NCBI GenBank assembly: GCA_964604825.1
Contig: CAZSAL010000010.1
Location: 2,141 to 66,140 of the forward strand
Direction: 5' to 3'
From: an uncultured Elusimicrobia bacterium
GTDB lineage: Bacteria > Elusimicrobiota > Elusimicrobia > 2-01-FULL-59-12
DNA: 64,000 bases
Part shown: in pieces, positions 530 through 10,214 of the stretch
Position numbering within the stretch: the first letter of the stretch is position 1
Layout: each line of letters begins with the position of its first letter
Notes under the pieces: generated by a model
Database searches by the model: none
The model's input: only the letters and a program-made list of their open reading frames with translations
Told to the model about the DNA's origin: nothing
Translations under genes and position numbers: made by a program

Positions 530-1015
530 TTATCCAACCCGAATAATACCTAAATGTTTGCGGATAAATTTCAGGATGCACCAATTGAATCCATTATCAT
601 GAATAACTTTATGGAATGCTTCATAAACCGGGTGGGGATGATCCGCCGTCATTTCATCCATCCGGCGGCCTGGATCCACATCGTGGACCAGGATGAATCC
701 GCCCGGCTTAACCATCGGCAACCCACTTTGAATATCCTTAAGCGCCCCTTCATAAGTGTGATCCCCATCAACGAGATAAATATCAACCTCCCGAGGATAC
801 TCTTCTGCTAACCGCTGGACCAAAACCGCAGAGTTTCCGTTCAGCAATTGGACTATCTTATTGTGGCCGCCTATTCGCTGCAAGTTTTTCATTGTAACGA
901 TAGGATATGTGTTCGCTGAATAGGTGTCATTATCTATACAAATCAATCTCCCCTTCTCATTATCAACGATGGCTTTTGCCCAACCAATTGCCGTACCGCC
1001 GGCGTACGTTCCCAA
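530..1015 (-). CDS. class I SAM-dependent methyltransferase (Methyltransf_24/CmcI-like), TTG start, possibly N-terminally truncated
   Basis: Motif I-like GTYAGGTAIGWA, acidic LVDGDH and VKPGGFILVHDV fit the Rossmann SAM-methyltransferase fold. The ORF is bounded by a stop immediately upstream of the TTG, and it is about 40 aa shorter than typical family members. Confidence 0.55.
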   Translation of the reverse strand: MGTYAGGTAIGWAKAIVDNEKGRLICIDNDTYSANTYPIVTMKNLQRIGGHNKIVQLLNGNSAVLVQRLAEEYPREVDIYLVDGDHTYEGALKDIQSGLPMVKPGGFILVHDVDPGRRMDEMTADHPHPVYEAFHKVIHDNGFNWCILKFIRKHLGIIRVG

Positions 1016-1198: not shown

Positions 1199-2245
1199 TC
1201 AATTTCTTGCTTGCGTATATTTTTTTGAAAGATTAAGCAGGTGCGCTCCAGAGGCCTTGGCCATTTTGACGGCAACTGCATTTCCAATTTGCATCGCTAT
1301 TCGAGTAATAGATGAACCATAAAAAACGTAGTCGTCATCAAAACTCTGGAGCGCCGCCGCTTCCCTCAAAGATATTGCTCGATTTTGTTCCGGATGCCCA
1401 TACCTGCCATTAGAAATACTCCAACATTTGCACGTCAGCGCTGGCGCTGGTTTTCCCCAAGGGAGTCTCCCATACACATCCGTATGTCCGAGGTATTTTT
1501 TATGACACTCTAAACGCAACTCTGCAGGCCATGCAAACCGATTTCCGCCATCGGAAGGAGTGTTACGTAGTCTCCGAAAATTCGTTTTGGAAATTGATGC
1601 GGCCCGATGGTTTGGGATATTTAAATGTGACTCGCCCGCCTTAATGGGAGGATATTTTCTGATAGCGTCTTTAACAGTAACAAAGTCTCTGAGTTTAGGG
1701 CCATGCGTTGGTTCGGGCGGAGTAGGCTGGAATAATCTGGACGCGATTAAGATCAATCGTCGGCGAGTTTGCGGGACCCCGTAATGTTTTGCATCCAGAA
1801 TATTAATGGACACCTTATATCCTCTTGTCGTAAGCTCTTTTTCAAAACGACGAAATGCACTAAATCCTTTGACTTTCAAAATTCCCGGCACATTTTCGAC
1901 TAAGATATGTGCTGGTTTGAACGTGCGAACAAATTTTTGCACCTGCCCTAGCAGACTCTTTAAATGATGGTTGGAAAATTCGCGTCGCTGCTTAGTAAAC
2001 GGCTGGCAGGGTGCGCATGCGGCAAAGAGCAACTCGTCCTTATTTATCCCTTTCAAAAAAGGTCTCAGTTCTCTGGGCTTGAGCTTCCGAATGTCTTTGC
2101 AAAGGAATCGGGCTGGCGAGTTATTTTTCTCATATGTTTCCTGGCAACTTTCGTCCGAGTCTATCCCTAAGATAACATTAACGTTGGCATCCAAAAGGCC
2201 GCGAGTTAAGCCGCCGCCGCCGCAAAAGAAATCTACCGCTATCAT
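1199..2245 (-). CDS. DNA (cytosine-5)-methyltransferase
   Basis: Motif I IAVDFFCGGGG, PC motif IV APCQPFT, ENV motif VI ILVENVPG, and QTRRRLILIA. The ATG at 2245-2243 overlaps the stop of the upstream REC gene (ATGA), so the coupled start is preferred over the longer 2290 start. Confidence 0.85.
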   Translation of the reverse strand: MIAVDFFCGGGGLTRGLLDANVNVILGIDSDESCQETYEKNNSPARFLCKDIRKLKPRELRPFLKGINKDELLFAACAPCQPFTKQRREFSNHHLKSLLGQVQKFVRTFKPAHILVENVPGILKVKGFSAFRRFEKELTTRGYKVSINILDAKHYGVPQTRRRLILIASRLFQPTPPEPTHGPKLRDFVTVKDAIRKYPPIKAGESHLNIPNHRAASISKTNFRRLRNTPSDGGNRFAWPAELRLECHKKYLGHTDVYGRLPWGKPAPALTCKCWSISNGRYGHPEQNRAISLREAAALQSFDDDYVFYGSSITRIAMQIGNAVAVKMAKASGAHLLNLSKKYTQARN

Positions 2246-3396
2246 GATGTTCGGTTTGCCACCGTGTACGTCCAAATATCTGTTAACCATTGGTCAGTAT
2301 TGGTTTCTGGCAATCCGGGCCTTCCCACAATTTGCAGATAGGCCCAAACAATCTGTTCCCGAAATGGGCTGTCAATCGAAAGAAGGCGCTTAAATTTATT
2401 AGTAGGAACAGTGTCCTTGAATGAGATGTCCCCGATAGGAATCTGCAACAGTGACCGGACATTTACGGCTAGGGGTGGCATGATCGAAGGATATTCAGGC
2501 AATAATACATACCCGGCGAACTGAGTCTGCGTAATATGAGACGCCAATCTTTTGCGAAAATCACTTTCCGATGTTGTGGAAGTAACGCCACACTTTTTAG
2601 CGTACTCGTTTAAGTTCTCGCACCTCGCAACTAATATTTCGGCAGCACGACAAGAACCATCCTCACGAATAGCCATGTCGCAAGAGGGTGTAAGCACAAG
2701 AAAATATGCGGTTGCTGACTCCTTTGGCTGCCCCGCTTCAAAAAGAATATCGCCAGTTAATAGGCTCGCCTCAAGCGGTGGATATATGAATTGTTCCCAG
2801 GATATTAATTTCTCCGATGTGCGGGAAGTGTCCATATCCATCAGAGCCCCCATACGTCTTCGAGCAGTTCTGAGGAGCATCTTACTGCGCAAGGCTTCAT
2901 CGCTCTGCGCATCCCAAATGTTTTGACATGTTGTGCGCAAAATCTGTTGCGTCACCCCCGCAAATTCATCGCGAATATTGTTCAACGCCCCAATGTGTGG
3001 TAAGAATTCCTCCAAGGCTGCGACAACATTTTGATCGCTGGATTTACTTTTCGTGATAACTTTTACGAATGGATGATTTGGAGGGATACGAGGGCCAAGT
3101 TCCGCTTCCCCTGCCGTGTAAATTATTACAGGCGAAAAATGTTTCTCCCAAACGTCTTTCCATATTAATTCTCCATGCTTCTTACTATGTTGTGCAGGAT
3201 TACCTTGATACAGATCAAGCACAATAACATCAGGACGAGACGACGAAAGGTCAGATACACCTTTAGTAAAATCGCTTTCAATAGTAACGTCGGCCACAGA
3301 GGGTGGCCACTTCTCATTTATAGATTGTTTAACAACTTCGGCATGCTCTTTCTCGTCGTCGATTATGAGTATCCTAAAGGGGGTCTTTACAGGCAT
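2242..3396 (-). CDS. response-regulator receiver (REC) domain protein with a ~250-aa C-terminal domain that could not be assigned. Candidate effector of a defence two-component module.
   Basis: N-terminal CheY-like fold with acid pocket IIDDE (D13/D14), predicted phospho-acceptor D61 in VIVLDLYQG, T/S in IIYTAG, and K in VKVITKSK. The C-terminal 130-384 has no motif I could assign (contains LTPSCDMAIREDGSCRAAEILVARCENL). It lies 14 nt downstream of the kinase gene and is translationally coupled to the methyltransferase downstream. Confidence 0.75.
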   Translation of the reverse strand: MPVKTPFRILIIDDEKEHAEVVKQSINEKWPPSVADVTIESDFTKGVSDLSSSRPDVIVLDLYQGNPAQHSKKHGELIWKDVWEKHFSPVIIYTAGEAELGPRIPPNHPFVKVITKSKSSDQNVVAALEEFLPHIGALNNIRDEFAGVTQQILRTTCQNIWDAQSDEALRSKMLLRTARRRMGALMDMDTSRTSEKLISWEQFIYPPLEASLLTGDILFEAGQPKESATAYFLVLTPSCDMAIREDGSCRAAEILVARCENLNEYAKKCGVTSTTSESDFRKRLASHITQTQFAGYVLLPEYPSIMPPLAVNVRSLLQIPIGDISFKDTVPTNKFKRLLSIDSPFREQIVWAYLQIVGRPGLPETNTDQWLTDIWTYTVANRTS

Positions 3397-3409
3397 ATTA
3401 ATACCAGTC

Positions 3410-5533
3410 CTATCGTTTCAGAGGAATGTCAAAACCAAAGCTAGCGCCACCCAATTCGCCAGGCTGAATCAAATGCATTTTCCCGTCATATTGTGCGACT
3501 AATTCAGATGCGACGGTGAGACCCATGCCAATGCCATCCGGCTTCTTAGTGACCCCCGGCCAGAAAATCCGTTCTTCGTCTTCATGATCTATTCCAGGTC
3601 CTGAATCGTGAACTTTAATATAGAGTCGTTCTCCGTCAGATATTTTTTTAGCTCCCACTTTGATTTGGCGTTTATCTGGACCCACTTCTGATAACCAGTA
3701 AATTGCATTTGTTAGCAAATTCACGAGAATGGTTGATAGGTCGGCTGGATCAATTGCAACGATTTGAGCGGGGAATTCTTTCATACTAAGGCTGATTTTC
3801 AATTTATCTATATCCGGTTGATTCATAGCGACACATTCTTCCATGATGGTCTTTGCATCGCAATTCCGGAGTTGCTTACTTTGACTTCGATTGGCCAATG
3901 GCGCAAATGTGTTCGCTAAGTGTTCCAAAGTGTCAACTGCATGCTCAGCTAACCGAATATTTTTTTCATACGGCTTGAGAGCCTCGCTTTGATCTTCAAT
4001 GGCTTTTAGAAGCAATCGATTCAACTTGCTGATTGCGAGCAATTGATTCCTGACTTCATGAACGATAGTCGCAGCCATTATCCCAAGGCTTGCCAGACGA
4101 CTGTAATAAACAAGCCTCTTCTCAATTTGCTTGATTACTTGTTCCTGTTCGGCGGCAAACCGTTGAACAGCAGATACTAATTCTGCTGGCCCGTTCTTTT
4201 CTTTTGAAATTCGCTCAATTGTTTCCACCATTTCGCGAGGAGACAGATTCGAAAACAAATCTTTAAATGGCGGCTCCTTGTGCTTGGCTCCTTGACGGTC
4301 AGAATCTCGTTCTCGTTCAAGAACAGGGAATAATCGCGTTTTGAAAATTTCGCAGAATTGGCGAAATGCCTGATTATCTTCAAGTCTTTCTCGATCACTG
4401 GTGTCTTTAAGACGACGATTCTTATCCGCAGATATGGCGATATACCCAATAATCTGGTTTGTGCTCAGACGCACACCAACCCGACTAACTCGACGAAGAT
4501 CGATTCCCATCCAGTCGATCGCCGATCCAGATTTAGGAAGGACTAAAATTCCATCGCGGTAAAGAGAGATCCCTGACTGGGCTTTTATCGTGTCGCGAAC
4601 ATCCTTTCTGTCTAGATGGAGTTCTCCACTAAGATCTTCGAGCTCGCCAAGTGCGATATCCCAAACTCTTAATTCAAATTCAAATGGTCCACATATGAGA
4701 TCCTTTTTCCTGCGCTGAATTGGATCAGATGACGTAGTCAAGACATCCAAAGTGAATGGGACACTCCTTTTCTTCACTCGTCTACTGAAACAATATTCGG
4801 CGATTATCTTACCCGAATCATCAACCTTACCCTTTAACAAATAAGGTGGGTTCTCCAAGAATGCAGGAGGATTAATTTCAAGAGGGATGGAGCCTCCTTC
4901 GGGCAATGTTAGCCGTATTGAAAAGTTGTCCAATTGACGGAATGGTGGGATTAGCCTTGCTAGACACTCGCGCAAATTAGCAAATTCGTCTTGATCCCAT
5001 TCAGTCTTTAGATCAATAATGCGCAAAATTGTACCCGTGGAAGAAAATGGGCTCTCCTCAACCTCATCTACCCTTATCTTATACGAGTCGATATCTTCAG
5101 CGCTCTCCAGCGTGTCCCAGCTAACGTTAAATCTGAAGCAAGGACTGGCCTGTGCTTTCGTTATTACTTCAATTTCCTTTCCCAAACGAGCGGAGGACAA
5201 TCTGCCCAATCCCTTTTCTCCAGAGACACGTCTTTTCATCGCGCCTGACTTCATAAATGGCATCTTAAGGCGATACGGTGTGGCCACCACTGCCCAAACA
5301 TCCTGGATAATTTCTCGCGTCATCCCAGTTCCGTTATCTTCTATTTCGACCGCCATTGTCCCGGAGGTATTCCGAATGAACCGAACATCCACGCGTGTAG
5401 CTAAAGCATCGTAGGAATTCTTGACGAGTTCCATGATTGCGACGATATCACTGGTTACCAAATCCGCTCCTAGCGCCGCAAAGACACGAGGATGCATCCT
5501 GAATGTGACCTGGTTGTTAATTGGAGTGTTCAT
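3410..5533 (-). CDS. cytoplasmic sensor histidine kinase with an N-terminal MORC/HATPase_c_3-like GHKL ATPase domain (GHKL - linker - HisKA - HATPase_c)
   Basis: N-terminus: Bergerat N-box ELVKNSYDA, G1 EDNGTGM and G2 GEKGLGRLS, which is the HATPase_c_3/MORC type. C-terminus: H-box ATIVHEVRNQLLAI, N-box LLTNAIYW, HDSGPGID and GIGMGLTVA, a classic histidine kinase catalytic core. I found no hydrophobic TM stretch. Local GC is lower than in the core genes. Confidence 0.75.
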   Translation of the reverse strand: MNTPINNQVTFRMHPRVFAALGADLVTSDIVAIMELVKNSYDALATRVDVRFIRNTSGTMAVEIEDNGTGMTREIIQDVWAVVATPYRLKMPFMKSGAMKRRVSGEKGLGRLSSARLGKEIEVITKAQASPCFRFNVSWDTLESAEDIDSYKIRVDEVEESPFSSTGTILRIIDLKTEWDQDEFANLRECLARLIPPFRQLDNFSIRLTLPEGGSIPLEINPPAFLENPPYLLKGKVDDSGKIIAEYCFSRRVKKRSVPFTLDVLTTSSDPIQRRKKDLICGPFEFELRVWDIALGELEDLSGELHLDRKDVRDTIKAQSGISLYRDGILVLPKSGSAIDWMGIDLRRVSRVGVRLSTNQIIGYIAISADKNRRLKDTSDRERLEDNQAFRQFCEIFKTRLFPVLERERDSDRQGAKHKEPPFKDLFSNLSPREMVETIERISKEKNGPAELVSAVQRFAAEQEQVIKQIEKRLVYYSRLASLGIMAATIVHEVRNQLLAISKLNRLLLKAIEDQSEALKPYEKNIRLAEHAVDTLEHLANTFAPLANRSQSKQLRNCDAKTIMEECVAMNQPDIDKLKISLSMKEFPAQIVAIDPADLSTILVNLLTNAIYWLSEVGPDKRQIKVGAKKISDGERLYIKVHDSGPGIDHEDEERIFWPGVTKKPDGIGMGLTVASELVAQYDGKMHLIQPGELGGASFGFDIPLKR

Positions 5534-5633: not shown

Positions 5634-6050
5634 TCAGACTAACCTTTTACGAATCCGACTCATAACCATTTCGGGATTTTTCTTTATATCATGTTCCCAT
5701 ATTCGAATCACATGCCATCCATTCCGCCTCAACTTGGCACTGACTCTTCGATCTCGTCTTCTATTTGTCCGTAATTTTTCAGCCCAGTAAACGCTATTGC
5801 TAGCTGGTTTTAGGTTCCTGCGACATTTCGTGCAGCCATGCCAAAAACATCCATCAATGAAAACCGCTAATTTTGCCCCCGGAAATGCAATATCTGGCCG
5901 ACCAGGCAATTTCGAAAGATGGCGCCGCCACCCCACGATTCTGTGACGTCTTAACATGCTGACAATCACGCGCTCAGTGGATTGGTTATTTCGGCCTTTT
6001 ATTAAAGCCATCACAGCAGAACGCTTGGCTCGGGTGAAAATATCCGCCAT
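5634..6050 (-). CDS. vsr: very short patch repair endonuclease (Vsr)
   Basis: DIAFPGAKLAVFIDGCFWHGC...WHVIRIWEHD is the Vsr signature (FxDGCFWH, catalytic D, C-terminal H). It sits next to C5-methyltransferase genes, as expected for a T/G mismatch repair partner. Confidence 0.85.
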   Translation of the reverse strand: MADIFTRAKRSAVMALIKGRNNQSTERVIVSMLRRHRIVGWRRHLSKLPGRPDIAFPGAKLAVFIDGCFWHGCTKCRRNLKPASNSVYWAEKLRTNRRRDRRVSAKLRRNGWHVIRIWEHDIKKNPEMVMSRIRKRLV

Positions 6051-6058
6051 GCTCTAAC

Positions 6059-7174
6059 CTACGGTACGACGATATAGCTTGCCGGTCGGCGACGCACCAA
6101 TAGATTGATCAGTTTTTTCAGTGGCGGGCAGACCGGGCTCCTTACCATATCTTCGAAACTAGGTTTCGTTTTGCCGTCCTTCGGAGCGGCGGAAATAGGC
6201 CCCGAATACAATTTCCCTTCAACTAAATCGATAACGTCTTTCGGCTTTCTAAAACTTTCGGCGTAGGAGAAACTGAGGAGATTTACTTCCGACGTTATCT
6301 CGGACAGGAATTTATAAACATCAAGAGCTGTTGTAGCGCTGATATATTTGACGAGCACGTCTTGAACTATCCAGATCGTTTTGCCGCCCCAAGCGATCCC
6401 CACCTCGGATTTCACAATAAGTTGGCTGACCATACGTGCCCAGACCTGCCGATAATTTATGCCCGGAGCGCTGTGCTCTCGGCCTAAAATCGCATCCTCA
6501 AAGGCCATAGGGATCGTCGTCCGTTTTGTCTTGTTGCCGCCAGAAGTACTGGACGTCATTATCTCTATAACGGCCGGTATCCCTACCGGCGCATCGTCGA
6601 CGAAATAGGCGTTACCTCGTTTAGCGATGGTGTAACCCTCTCTTTCAAAATGAGGTTTTAGAAATCCCCATTTCTCACCAGTTGAATTTTCGATCTCTTC
6701 CTGGCTGGAGACACCGAGAGGCATCAATATGTAGTCGAATGTATAATCAAAGGCTTTCTCAACACCATTGATCTTCTCGACATATTTAAGTTTAACTTCG
6801 GGCCAAATGCCCAGCCGTGTGCCGGATTCGTATCCGCATAAACTCAAGACCTTGTCCTCAACTTGGCGTTGATGGGCACGCCTTTCCGCGCTATCTCTCC
6901 CAAGAGCCAGGAGGCGACGTGGGCATACGATCCAAGGCGCATCGTCTTCGCGCATTTGAAGCGAACAAACGCCGGAGCAGACTTTCTCCTTACCAGTACC
7001 GAAAAATCGTTCAAGCGCTTTATTGCCTGATATGACTACATCGGAGAGGTATCTATTACCCCCACCGTCGCACTCTCGGTTCATGAAAGGACAGAGAGCC
7101 GATTGTCGATTACGAGTGGCTTCTTTGGAAGTATCTGCTACTGGATATCCGTAGAGTTCGAATATTTTTGCCAA
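6059..7174 (-). CDS. putative type II restriction endonuclease, NotI-family-like, with a Cys-rich N-terminal metal-binding cluster
   Basis: The N-terminus has ALCPFMNRECDGG...VCSGVC...IVCPRR. This Cys4-type cluster and the FELYGYPV lead-in are reminiscent of NotI-like enzymes. It lies between a C5-methyltransferase and vsr, in an operon with an ATGA-style overlap. The assignment is from memory of the family, not a search. Confidence 0.5.
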   Translation of the reverse strand: MAKIFELYGYPVADTSKEATRNRQSALCPFMNRECDGGGNRYLSDVVISGNKALERFFGTGKEKVCSGVCSLQMREDDAPWIVCPRRLLALGRDSAERRAHQRQVEDKVLSLCGYESGTRLGIWPEVKLKYVEKINGVEKAFDYTFDYILMPLGVSSQEEIENSTGEKWGFLKPHFEREGYTIAKRGNAYFVDDAPVGIPAVIEIMTSSTSGGNKTKRTTIPMAFEDAILGREHSAPGINYRQVWARMVSQLIVKSEVGIAWGGKTIWIVQDVLVKYISATTALDVYKFLSEITSEVNLLSFSYAESFRKPKDVIDLVEGKLYSGPISAAPKDGKTKPSFEDMVRSPVCPPLKKLINLLVRRRPASYIVVP

Positions 7175-8346
7175 TTAGGTGTTCCCAAGATCGCGAGGGC
7201 TATCGCCTTCGCAACAGGCGGCGGAACCGAGTTAGCAACTTGACGGTGCTGGTCAAGCTCGCGTACGCTGCCTGATCTTCCCCGGATAGGTCCTTTCAAA
7301 TGATAGTCATCTGGGTATCCATGCAATCTCATGTATTCCCGAGGAGTCAAATATCGATCTTCTGTTGGATGGAAGAAAATCTCACCACAACGAAGCGTCA
7401 AGGATGGTTGTTTCCTAGATAGCCGACGAAATTTCGTCGTATCTTTTTTGGATAGTCTTCCCCGCTGTTTTGCCGGAAGATGATGTTGGGCGGATAGATG
7501 ACCTCCTTCTGGTACTCCACGAATGCGCTTATAGTCCCCGTCAGGCGTGATATCGACGTGACTATCCGCAAATTGCGCCCCGTCAGATTTTCGTCTAGGC
7601 TTAGGCAATCCAGCCAGGACCCGCCCAGCCGTGACGAAGGGAGGAAGGGGAAATAGAGTCATCTCGGTTTCGGGGTCCGCATGGGTTGGGGAAGGAAAAA
7701 CGAAACCGTTCGGCTTAGGAATAGCGACGGTAATGACACGTTGACGTAGTTGAGGCACTCCGTACTCCGCGGCATTTACCACTTTCCATTTCGGGACATA
7801 TCCCAAGCTCGAGATTTCCCCCAAAAACATTTCGAATACTCCACCAGGCTTTCCGGTATGATCCGGCGCATTGAGCAATCCCTTAACTTGCTCTACGATG
7901 AGGGCTTTTGGTCTAAGGACCTTTGCGAATCTGGCAATCTGAAACAACAGCATGCCTCGTTCGTCGCTCAAGCTCTCACGTTTGCCAATCTGAGAAAAAG
8001 CCTGGCAGGGCGGACCTCCAAAAAGCAAATCAAGCTCCCCAATTTTTAAGCCCAACTCTTTCATGAGATTCTCAGGATCAATCGTTCGAATATCCGCTTG
8101 GATCACCTTCGTCTTTGGGCTCTTTTTTAAGAACGAGGACCTCAACGTTTCGCAACAGTTGGGGTCCATTTCTATGCAAGTCAATATCTCGAACCCGGCT
8201 TGATGAACACCGAGGTCCATGCCACCCGCTCCTGAAAATAGCGAGATTGCCGTATATGAGGTTTTGGGGTTCTTTCGAATTGTCTTTAAGATAGGGTCTG
8301 CTGTCGCGAAAGTCATATCATTCCTCCAAGGATTATATATAGGCAA
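7138..8346 (-). CDS. DNA (cytosine-5)-methyltransferase
   Basis: Motif I ISLFSGAGGMDLG, PCQ motif IV LLFGGPPCQAFSQIGKRE, motif VI ALIVEQVKGLL and motif VIII QLRQRVITVA, with a large variable target-recognition region. Confidence 0.85.
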   Translation of the reverse strand: MPIYNPWRNDMTFATADPILKTIRKNPKTSYTAISLFSGAGGMDLGVHQAGFEILTCIEMDPNCCETLRSSFLKKSPKTKVIQADIRTIDPENLMKELGLKIGELDLLFGGPPCQAFSQIGKRESLSDERGMLLFQIARFAKVLRPKALIVEQVKGLLNAPDHTGKPGGVFEMFLGEISSLGYVPKWKVVNAAEYGVPQLRQRVITVAIPKPNGFVFPSPTHADPETEMTLFPLPPFVTAGRVLAGLPKPRRKSDGAQFADSHVDITPDGDYKRIRGVPEGGHLSAQHHLPAKQRGRLSKKDTTKFRRLSRKQPSLTLRCGEIFFHPTEDRYLTPREYMRLHGYPDDYHLKGPIRGRSGSVRELDQHRQVANSVPPPVAKAIALAILGTPNWQKYSNSTDIQ

Positions 8347-8758: not shown

Positions 8759-8808
8759 TGGATGACCTCCTACTAGATAGCATTACGACTATTTCAAGAA
8801 AAATAAAA

Positions 8809-8895
8809 CGGAGGGAGAGGGATTCGAACCCCCGGTACCCTTTCGGGTACAAACGATTTCAAGTCGTTCGCTTTCGACCACTCAGCCATCCCTCC
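8809..8895 (-). tRNA. tRNA-Ser (anticodon TGA)
   Basis: The reverse complement reads GGAGGGATGGCTGAGTGGTCGAAAGCGAACGACTTGAAATCGTTTGTACCCGAAAGGGTACCGGGGGTTCGAATCCCTCTCCCTCCG. It has a 7-bp acceptor stem, anticodon stem AACGA/TCGTT with loop CTTGAAA giving anticodon UGA, a long variable arm (Ser type), a GTTCGAATC T-loop and discriminator G. CCA is not encoded. Confidence 0.85.
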
Positions 8896-9020
8896 AAAAA
8901 TTTGTTTACAACTCCATGCAGCCGACTTTACAGCCACATCGTACAAAAGCGTAAAACTCGGTATCACTCCGTTTCACTTCTCTGAATGAACAGGTGCGGC
9001 AGCTTCGGCCTTTCATTTAC

Positions 9021-9065: not shown

Positions 9066-10214
9066 TTATCCAAGGCGCAGACCTGGGATCTGTTTTAATC
9101 CGATGGCGGTGACGCGTTCCGACAATGGAAATGAATGATCCCCCGGATAGACGATCCACAAATGCGAGAGACGGAGGTCCTTTAAGACCACATGAATCGA
9201 TTTCGTGAGACGCGGGGTCTCGGACACTTTAAACTCGAATCCCCATCGGCGGCTTCCCCGCGGCACAAAAAGATCCAGTTCCGCGCCGGCATGCGTCGCC
9301 CAGAAATAGACATCGCGTTCGCCGACAATCTTGAGAATCTGCTCGATGGCGAATCCCTCCCATGATGCGCCCAGCTTCGGATGCGCCTGAAGGTCCCGCC
9401 AAAGAGAAAACCTCATCAGGCTGTGGAACAACCCCGAATCCCGGATATAAATCTTGGGCGCCTTGACGACCCTTTTCCCCATATTCTCGTGCCACGGCGC
9501 CAATTGCCGAACCATGAAGGCGCCGCTCAATAAATCCAGGTAATCCCGAGTCGTCGTATGGGCCAGGCCCAGAGAGGCCGCGATCTCCGACGCATTCCAA
9601 ACCTGTCCATGATAATGAGCCAACATGCTCCAGAATCGACGCAGTTTTCCCGCCGGAATCCGAATGCCCAGACGGGGAATGTCACGCTCAAGAAAAGTGC
9701 GGATAAAATCGTCCCGCCACTGGAGGCTTTGGGACTCCGCCCGCGCCAGGAAAGACCCTGGAAATCCTCCCCGCAACCAGAGCTTTTGTTGGGCGCCCGG
9801 CCCCACCTCGTCCAGCGTAAATCCTCCCATATCTACAAAATGGATCCGTCCGGCCAGAGATTCCGAGGCGCCGCGCACCAGGTCAGGAGAAGCGCTCCCC
9901 AAAAGTAAAAACCGAGAGCGTCTGGGTCTGCGGTCCGCCAGCCCGCGGAGGACGCCGAAGATGTCAGGGCGAAGCGGAACTTCATCGAGGATGACAAGCC
10001 CCCGGAGCCCTTCCAGCGCCGTTCGGGGGTTTTGCAGCCGAGCATCATCGGCCGGATTCTCAAGATCGAAATAATGGCTTGCTTGACCCCGGGCGGCCTG
10101 TCGGGAGAGGGTGGTCTTCCCGCTTTGACGCGGGCCCAGGAGCGCCGTCACTGGATAATGATGGAGTCCCTGAGAGAGCCGGCGTGACAGCCGGGAGCGT
10201 GGGATAAGCGGCAT
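9066..10214 (-). CDS. AAA+ ATPase of the AAA_14/DUF4143 family
   Basis: Walker A GPRQSGKTTL, Walker B-like VILDEV, and the characteristic C-terminal DUF4143-like region (FWATHAGAELDLFV...). Confidence 0.7.
   Translation of the reverse strand: MPLIPRSRLSRRLSQGLHHYPVTALLGPRQSGKTTLSRQAARGQASHYFDLENPADDARLQNPRTALEGLRGLVILDEVPLRPDIFGVLRGLADRRPRRSRFLLLGSASPDLVRGASESLAGRIHFVDMGGFTLDEVGPGAQQKLWLRGGFPGSFLARAESQSLQWRDDFIRTFLERDIPRLGIRIPAGKLRRFWSMLAHYHGQVWNASEIAASLGLAHTTTRDYLDLLSGAFMVRQLAPWHENMGKRVVKAPKIYIRDSGLFHSLMRFSLWRDLQAHPKLGASWEGFAIEQILKIVGERDVYFWATHAGAELDLFVPRGSRRWGFEFKVSETPRLTKSIHVVLKDLRLSHLWIVYPGDHSFPLSERVTAIGLKQIPGLRLG

Follow-up and report, generated by a model that had tools for sequence, protein, structure and literature searches.

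A MORC-type ATPase-histidine kinase and a receiver protein with a predicted toxin-fold output domain, linked to a cytosine methylase in an uncultured Elusimicrobia bacterium

A 64,000-nt stretch of DNA from an uncultured Elusimicrobia bacterium (GenBank assembly GCA_964604825.1, contig CAZSAL010000010.1, positions 2,141 to 66,140 of the forward strand; referred to here in its full length as the window) includes six tightly packed minus-strand genes, all in the same direction, in a stretch of low GC content. Two of these are the subject of this report: one encodes a histidine kinase (HK) that begins with a MutL/MORC-type GHKL ATPase, and the other a receiver (REC) protein, whose output domain has a predicted toxin fold. 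Both are considered together with the C5-methylase and Vsr genes that accompany them here and in related genomes. The features of the locus, from the first gene of the cluster to the last and preceded by the bordering tRNA gene, are:

8808-8896, minus strand: tRNA-Ser(TGA), at the border of the low-GC stretch
7138-8346, minus strand: C5-methylase (upstream methylase), first gene of the cluster
6059-7174, minus strand: 371-aa open reading frame (ORF), its sole family match a weak one to PADLOC REase_II
5634-6050, minus strand: Vsr very-short-patch repair endonuclease (Pfam Vsr, E 1.2e-18; NCBIfam vsr, E 1.2e-31)
3410-5533, minus strand: GHKL-histidine kinase, 707 aa (Pfam, NCBIfam, alignments with solved HKs)
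2242-3396, minus strand: REC-effector, 384 aa (AlphaFold2 (AF2) model with Foldseek, conserved residues)
1199-2245, minus strand: second C5-methylase, that of the module, 348 aa (Pfam DNA_methylase, E 1.3e-49)

A preliminary description of this DNA, made from its letters and ORFs, had placed the kinase, REC and C5-methyltransferase genes contiguously on the minus strand, and the ORFs are found as it located them. Of the two junctions it gave, the ATGA overlap between the receiver stop and the methylase start, which is compatible with translational coupling, is as described, while the kinase-to-receiver gap reads 13 rather than 14 nt; the gap from Vsr to the kinase is 100 nt. The lower GC content that it noted is also present: values are 0.43-0.48 over 2-6 kb and 0.43-0.50 over 1-9 kb, whereas most of the window has 0.50-0.58. 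The step in GC falls exactly at tRNA-Ser(TGA), with about 0.47 below 9 kb and 0.57 above, and the restriction-modification (R-M)/kinase cluster for this reason resembles a genomic island next to a tRNA gene. A search of 21 kb of contig gave no repeat of the tRNA-Ser 3' end, and a scan for promoters and terminators gave matches not above chance.

The kinase can be divided into a GHKL ATPase (residues ~13-206), a conserved middle block (~280-382), a DHp domain (~468-545), and an HK catalytic domain (595-706). Pfam identifies HATPase_c_3 at residues 31-159 (E 2.4e-19) and HATPase_c at residues 595-706 (E 3.9e-22), with a weak match (12 bits) to HisKA; NCBIfam HK models span residues 468-690 (AtoS, E 1e-31), and solved HKs align with residues 456-705. 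A profile of the N-terminal 460 residues, by contrast, matches only MutL and Hsp90/GRP94/HtpG ATPase domains in the PDB, and no kinases. Residues 13-206 also match positions 5-196 of the NCBIfam BbrUII/HgiDII model NF050001 (E 3e-23); at 82 bits against a cut-off of 550, and over just the N-terminal 196 of 659 profile positions, this does not amount to membership in the full-length family. The same residues match a PADLOC REase_II model as well. The middle block is strongly conserved (e.g., G321-x-x-x-Y-R-D-x-x-L-V-x-P-K), and may resemble the S5/transducer motif of MutL and MORC.

Conservation was examined in an alignment of 48 kinase homologues, including three plasmid proteins at 26-32% identity. 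The N-terminal Bergerat residues (E35, N39, D42, D66, G68, G70, G105, K107, G108, and G110), the H-box histidine (H492), and the C-terminal N, G1, and G2 boxes (N605, N609, D643, G645, G647, G667, G669, and G671) are all invariant. E493 and N496 are nearly so, giving an H-E-x-x-N motif of the kind tied in the literature to combined kinase and phosphatase activity. No transmembrane segment is predicted in the window kinase (maximum Kyte-Doolittle mean over 19 residues, 1.56), in agreement with the preliminary description, and no sensory transmembrane or PAS input was found. The Pfam, NCBIfam, and PDB profile matches thereby confirm the domain order first proposed for it: a soluble hybrid sensor kinase, with a MutL/Hsp90/MORC-type GHKL ATPase as its N-terminal module, followed by DHp and HK catalytic domains.

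The receiver of the REC-effector occupies residues ~7-120, with D61 as the phospho-acceptor. In the window protein the Pfam Response_reg match is below threshold (19.4 bits), but 38 of the 56 family members scanned match this family (PF00072). D14 and D61 do not vary, K116 hardly does, and a threonine or serine is kept at position 94. The receiver in the full-length AF2 model (predicted local distance difference test, pLDDT, 93.1) superposes on those of VicR, MicA, and YycF with a template modelling (TM) score of about 0.8 (Foldseek). It is followed by a long helical hairpin (residues 121-186) and by a C-terminal domain of ~190 residues (195-384), in which the invariant motifs W200-E201, G-D216, P-S-C239-D240, D342-S-P-F-R346-E347, and R359-P-G-x-P are found, along with several prolines.

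Because Foldseek returned only receiver domains for the full-length model, the C-terminal domain was modelled alone (pLDDT 92.5). Among the 50 matches listed for it in the PDB, 48 are MazF-type toxins or CcdB, and the other two are CptN and a chain of a Klebsiella toxin-antitoxin complex; target TM scores are mostly 0.6-0.7, with a best E value of 4.6e-4. The toxin fold was obtained by two independent methods, and the figures listed for the fold matches are:

MazF-mt3 (MazF6): 10.4
Staphylococcus aureus MazF: 10.1
CcdB: 9.5
Other MazFs and Kid: 8.1-9.1
CptN: 7.1
ToxN, AbiQ: 4.5-4.8

These models predict, with high confidence, a MazF/CcdB/Kid toxin fold for the output domain. What the preliminary description called a ~250-aa unknown domain, and an unassignable effector, is by this prediction a linker followed by a domain with a toxin fold, so divergent that sequence methods do not detect it. 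A Pfam scan of the REC-effector gave no PemK (PF02452) or CcdB (PF01845) match.

In one search the receiver-effector family numbered 294 clusters at 90% identity, and a profile of the C-terminal domain, run against 1.84 billion representatives, retrieved 964 at E<=1e-3 and 275 at the stricter E<=1e-30. The domain always lies at the C-terminus of proteins of ~360-390 aa and occurs in the REC-effector architecture only; one ~190-aa match, examined as a possible stand-alone domain, is a gene call cut at a contig end. Many family members bear the JGI name "CTP synthase," which is apparently spurious, no CTP synthase domain having been detected.

The output of the pair had been proposed to be either phosphorelay-gated restriction or abortive infection. 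Since the effector fold is predicted to be that of MazF/CcdB, an abortive infection or addiction output is favored over gated restriction, in which the REC protein's C-terminal domain or the middle region of the kinase would cleave or poison DNA (or act on gyrase), foreign DNA lacking methylation would be destroyed much as by classical R-M, and the cell would survive. RNases (MazF, Kid, and CptN) make up most of the strong fold matches, the others being CcdB and the Klebsiella toxin-antitoxin protein; neither the kinase nor the REC protein has a PD-(D/E)xK, HNH, GIY-YIG, or PLD signature in Pfam, NCBIfam, or PADLOC; and to our knowledge a small single-strand-binding toxin fold has no precedent as a site-specific endonuclease of double-stranded DNA. 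Gated restriction is thus an unlikely role for a module with a predicted toxin-fold effector.

Homologues of the window proteins were mapped onto 80 related loci, from contigs representing one genome per species, all labelled metagenome-assembled or uncultured; the phyla include Acidobacteriota, Planctomycetota, Chloroflexota, Nitrospirota, Desulfobacterota, Verrucomicrobiota, and Bacteroidota. Identity to the window proteins is 38-48% for the kinase and 29-40% for the receiver-effector. The kinase gene is directly upstream of the REC gene, on the same strand, in all 80. A C5-methylase of the module (downstream) type is adjacent in 76, downstream in 61 and upstream in 15, and Vsr, which is an accessory member and was counted if within 2.5 kb of the kinase/REC pair, is present in 49, most often directly upstream of the kinase. 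With genes abbreviated to V (Vsr), K (kinase), R (receiver-effector), and M (methylase), the gene orders are K-R-M in 25 loci; V-K-R-M in 21, with four more in which Vsr is inverted; and K-R-M-V in nine. A census of 140 ORFs flanking related loci showed no recurrent nuclease, lone REC, or antitoxin gene; type I R-M, AbiEii-like, integrase, and transposase genes were merely scattered among them. Across many phyla the four genes move as a set, and no further partner is conserved. The (Vsr)-kinase-REC-effector-methylase set is accordingly taken, from these neighborhoods, to be a putative conflict cassette: self-contained, horizontally mobile, of three to four genes, and nuclease-free.

The downstream methylases are more similar to the window protein (47-59% identity, five loci at 35-37% excepted) than either the kinases or the receiver-effectors are to theirs. 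Upstream-placed methylases form a second class, with 34-48% identity. The greater conservation of the methylase than of its partners, together with the existence of two methylase classes, hints at a few fixed target specificities that may co-evolve with the sensor. Four loci (L021, L039, L046, and L056) have a kinase homologue broken into two or three ORFs but intact partner genes, reflecting either decay or indels in long-read metagenome-assembled genomes.

The same survey bears on whether the two proteins might be an ordinary housekeeping two-component pair that lies next to R-M genes by chance. All that they have in common with such pairs is their generic HK and REC domains. Linkage of kinase to REC in 80 of 80 loci and to a methylase in 76 of 80, across many phyla and with unrelated flanks, contradicts this, and the kinase lacks the sensory transmembrane or PAS input; in addition, the window copy lies in a low-GC island. 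Homologues were found among defense and mobile genes and not in housekeeping contexts: one in the Acidobacteriota, for example, lies between a helicase/MZB gene pair, GmrSD, and a SIR2 gene beside a STAND NTPase gene. A housekeeping role is scarcely credible on this evidence. The preliminary reading is right as to the architecture, and probably also in giving the module a role in conflict; of the associations for which it proposed a survey, co-occurrence with methyltransferase genes is borne out, and recurrence of restriction endonuclease or standalone REC genes is not.

The combination had been taken at that stage for a candidate new system, but the same architecture was published in 2021. 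Bellieny-Rabelo, Pretorius & Moleleki 2021 (PMC8011034) reported 644 loci with HK-like/RR-like (response regulator-like) pairs linked to R-M and paraMORCs, the latter described by Iyer, Abhiman & Aravind 2008 (PMC2292703). Their HK-like proteins consist of HATPase_c_3, a new DHp domain (HEF_HK, PF19191), and HATPase_c, with Response_reg_2 (PF19192) in the RR-like partner; a paraMORC derivation was proposed, and the neighborhoods were enriched in C5-methylases, Vsr, and HNH_2. The window kinase has the identical architecture, with a DHp histidine followed by an acidic residue, and is likewise soluble. Its neighbor is likewise an adjacent REC-like protein of ~350-400 aa with a conserved acidic pair, Asp, Thr/Ser, and Lys, in which nothing else is annotated; C5-methylase and Vsr genes are nearby, and the sporadic spread fits lateral transfer. 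By eye, C-terminal motifs of the window protein recur at a plasmid locus of Burkholderia that agrees with the description in that paper.

There are also differences. The window lineage has the classical HisKA-type H-E-x-x-N motif, while PF19191 reportedly lacks the conserved T/N; its receivers are nearer to canonical ones, as judged by the PF00072 matches in 38 of 56; and it is found mostly in uncultured Acidobacteriota, Planctomycetota, Chloroflexota, and similar groups, rather than in Proteobacteria or Bacteroidota. At E<=10, neither PF19191 nor PF19192 matched the window proteins, the 56 family members, or the 6 + 7 plasmid relatives, Burkholderia included; the models may be missing from the Pfam copy used, or these lineages may lie outside them. 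The window module appears to be a new, divergent lineage of a published and functionally uncharacterized system.

The function proposed in the 2021 paper was possible regulation of R-M systems, with no output domain assigned (PMC8011034), and a literature search found no paper that assigns an output domain or toxin fold to the pair or reports experiments on it; a paper on WonAB and VcSduA in which paraMORC is cited deals with something unrelated. A two-component regulator that tunes the expression or activity of neighboring R-M genes would account for the consistent position of the pair beside methylase genes, and is the kind of signaling control speculated on there. The output domain, however, has no match to a helix-turn-helix (HTH) or other DNA-binding family in Pfam, and is predicted to have a toxin fold instead; moreover, most loci have no restriction gene near the pair for it to regulate. 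Such a regulatory role is highly improbable for the window module, compared with a toxic output.

More distant relatives are found on plasmids. Besides Acaryochloris pREB1 and a Bacillus plasmid, 33 Campylobacter plasmids carry a kinase-receiver-dcm triad, with 23-24% identity over the full length; of the 36 plasmid records that matched, 34 are assigned the conjugative type. The Campylobacter carriers are jejuni, coli, lari, and armoricus, with plasmids of about 50 kb, on which the triad (L008 and 32 others, e.g., NZ_CP092021.1, 1-4454) adjoins HicAB and an AAA ATPase; as a host, Campylobacter is culturable and clinically relevant. A kinase relative on the Burkholderia plasmid is partnered by an RR-like protein, Vsr, and a C5-methyltransferase. 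An Allorhizobium plasmid (L092, 3796-8482) encodes a class I S-adenosylmethionine (SAM) methyltransferase, the kinase, and a 409-aa RR-like protein, and a Bacteroides finegoldii plasmid (L090, 5004-10106) the kinase, a 209-aa REC-like protein, an HNH endonuclease, and an N6-methylase. That the distant kinases in the last two have different partners suggests that effectors and methylases may be swapped around a constant sensor kinase. By eye, the motifs GD...CD...R-x-x-S...PF...RPG-x-P are common to the Campylobacter and Allorhizobium proteins, and partly to that of Burkholderia, which shares the C-terminal motifs CD...REQ...ARPG with the window protein. With hhalign, the family profile gave no match to the single Burkholderia RR-like sequence and a weak one (19.8%) to that of Allorhizobium.

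Carriage on the Campylobacter and other plasmids, mostly conjugative, is what might be expected if the cassette were mainly a selfish addiction module, stabilizing its host island or plasmid and not dedicated to any action against phages; once the cassette was lost, methylation would be diluted and the kinase and the toxin switched on. Integrases and transposases flank related loci, the predicted fold is one typical of plasmid addiction systems (CcdB, Kid, and MazF), and the low-GC island that holds the window copy adjoins a tRNA gene. Addiction is nevertheless compatible with defense, since R-M systems do both, and some relatives lie in clear defense islands; nor has any component of the module been assigned as the long-lived factor that post-segregational killing requires. 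As a complete account of the module, addiction seems rather unlikely, and a role in defense by growth arrest, with or without addiction, is taken up below.

The module was first described as Detocs-like. Detocs (Rousset et al. 2023) consists of a DtcA kinase, a DtcB buffer receiver, and a DtcC receiver-effector, all three of which its detection rule requires, and its effectors are mostly PNP (ATP nucleosidase). The analogy holds for the path from a histidine kinase to a receiver fused to a toxic effector rather than to a DNA-binding domain, with abortive infection as the expected outcome. It does not extend to the three-gene definition: DtcB is absent, and, as the preliminary description also had it, there is no separate buffer REC, neither in the cluster nor as a recurrent gene among the 140 flanking ORFs. 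Further, the window effector has a predicted MazF/CcdB fold and no PNP match, the input of the kinase is a MutL/MORC-type GHKL ATPase, and the module is linked to C5-methylase and Vsr genes. The His-to-Asp phosphotransfer on which Detocs defense depends would use, in the window pair, the invariant H492 and D61. On this comparison the window module is not Detocs, and resembles it in logic only.

Three other comparisons can be made. BbrUII/HgiDII and the paraMORC-nuclease fusions (PMC2292703) have a homologous N-terminal GHKL ATPase, and cytosine methylase and Vsr partners, but the alignment is confined to the ATPase: in place of their C-terminal part the window kinase has a DHp-CA transmitter, and a separate REC protein carries the output. 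Unlike classical type II R-M, the module has no known nuclease family in the kinase or REC protein and no conserved nuclease gene. As for the toxins (MazF/Kid/PemK and CcdB; ToxN/AbiQ/CptN), the window C-terminal domain is predicted to have the characteristic MazF/PemK/CcdB fold but has no detectable sequence similarity to them, is about 90 residues larger, with inserted helices, and has a distinct set of invariant residues (C239, D240, D342, R346, E347, and R359); the module lacks an antitoxin gene, control presumably being exerted by the fused receiver.

The kinase retains intact ATPase motifs in both GHKL domains and the H-box histidine, and the receiver the full phospho-acceptor set. A possible mechanism can be built on these components. 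The methylase would mark host DNA as self, and Vsr, which repairs the T:G mismatches arising from deamination of 5-methylcytosine, would limit the mutagenic cost of this mark. The MutL/MORC-like GHKL half of the kinase would monitor the state of DNA, most simply the presence of unmethylated target sites, either on incoming DNA or appearing after loss of the cassette. This signal would shift the kinase from the phosphatase mode suggested by H-E-x-x-N to the kinase mode, and H492 would pass phosphate to D61. Phosphorylation might then free or dimerize the MazF-like domain by way of the long helical linker; MazF-family toxins act as dimers. The effector would act as a toxin, most likely an endoribonuclease and less likely a CcdB-type poison, and the cell would arrest, with abortive infection and/or post-segregational killing as the result rather than cleavage of foreign DNA. 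When there is no signal, the kinase's own phosphatase activity could hold the effector off, in place of the DtcB of Detocs.

Taken as a whole, this scheme (self marked by the methylase, DNA state sensed by the paraMORC-kinase, a toxin-fold effector gated by phosphotransfer, and growth arrest in place of DNA cleavage) is given about an even chance of being correct. Its fuller version is put forward tentatively, as somewhat less probable than that: the cassette would be an R-M-derived, methylation-based discriminator of self and non-self that no longer cuts DNA, and in which a MORC/MutL-like ATPase that reads the state of DNA would, through a His-Asp phosphorelay, switch on a fused MazF-fold toxin ("restriction by abortive infection"), with the phosphatase activity of the kinase as safety buffer.

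Several observations weigh against this scheme, beginning with the effector. A profile of the C-terminal domain found no match among PDB sequences, and hhalign of the domain against a hand-entered MazF/Kid alignment gave a probability of 0.2%; the similarity to MazF is structural only, and is seen in predicted models. In a hand alignment, the position of the MazF catalytic arginine is not invariant, and is F in the window protein. No counterpart could be mapped for the invariant C239-D240 and D342/R346/E347, so the chemistry of the effector may differ from that of MazF. As to the methylase, two of the 80 loci lack one within 7 kb (L020 is one of the two, and its contig stops inside the kinase gene, so that the upstream side is unseen), and four (L006, L031, L051, and L086) combine an intact kinase and effector with a methylase split into two or three ORFs. 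If real, these splits speak against methylase-dependent immunity; they may instead be long-read indels. The pair is nearly absent from phages (no matches in a phage collection and two loci in IMG/VR), which is neutral on defense, and PADLOC 2.0 does not list it, giving matches to generic domains only.

If the mechanism holds, it would link epigenetic self-marking by R-M, two-component phosphotransfer, and toxin-mediated abortive infection, which are usually separate. Prokaryotic paraMORC/MutL-like ATPases would gain a biochemical role as sensors of DNA state that signal rather than cut, with a bearing on how eukaryotic MORCs read chromatin marks. This kind of system has itself been known since 2021 (PMC8011034); added here are the predicted toxin-fold effector, the self-contained nuclease-free cassette, and a testable model. 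The toxin-fold assignment makes a "function unknown" pair, with about a thousand protein clusters in many phyla, directly testable.

The remaining genes of the cluster appear to be separate from the module. The preliminary description had the pair embedded in an R-M operon, which is right in so far as it is operonic with the C5-methylase; its own partners are the downstream methylase (1199-2245) and Vsr (5634-6050), and the region further upstream, 6059-8346, looks like a different R-M system. There, the upstream methylase overlaps the 371-aa ORF, for which no Pfam, NCBIfam, PDB, or plasmid match was found apart from the weak PADLOC one (REase_II, E 2.9e-4). These two co-occur in just one related locus (L086, with 34% and 47% identity) and, given this limited joint recurrence, are probably an independent type II R-M pair with an endonuclease of unclassified type.

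Other genes adjoin the cluster on either side. Directly downstream of the module C5-methylase is a Methyltransf_24 gene (class I SAM methyltransferase; 530-1015, minus strand). Just past tRNA-Ser, an ATPase with AAA_14 and DUF4143 domains (9066-10214, minus strand) matches the PADLOC candidate defense family PDC-S01 (E 6e-79).

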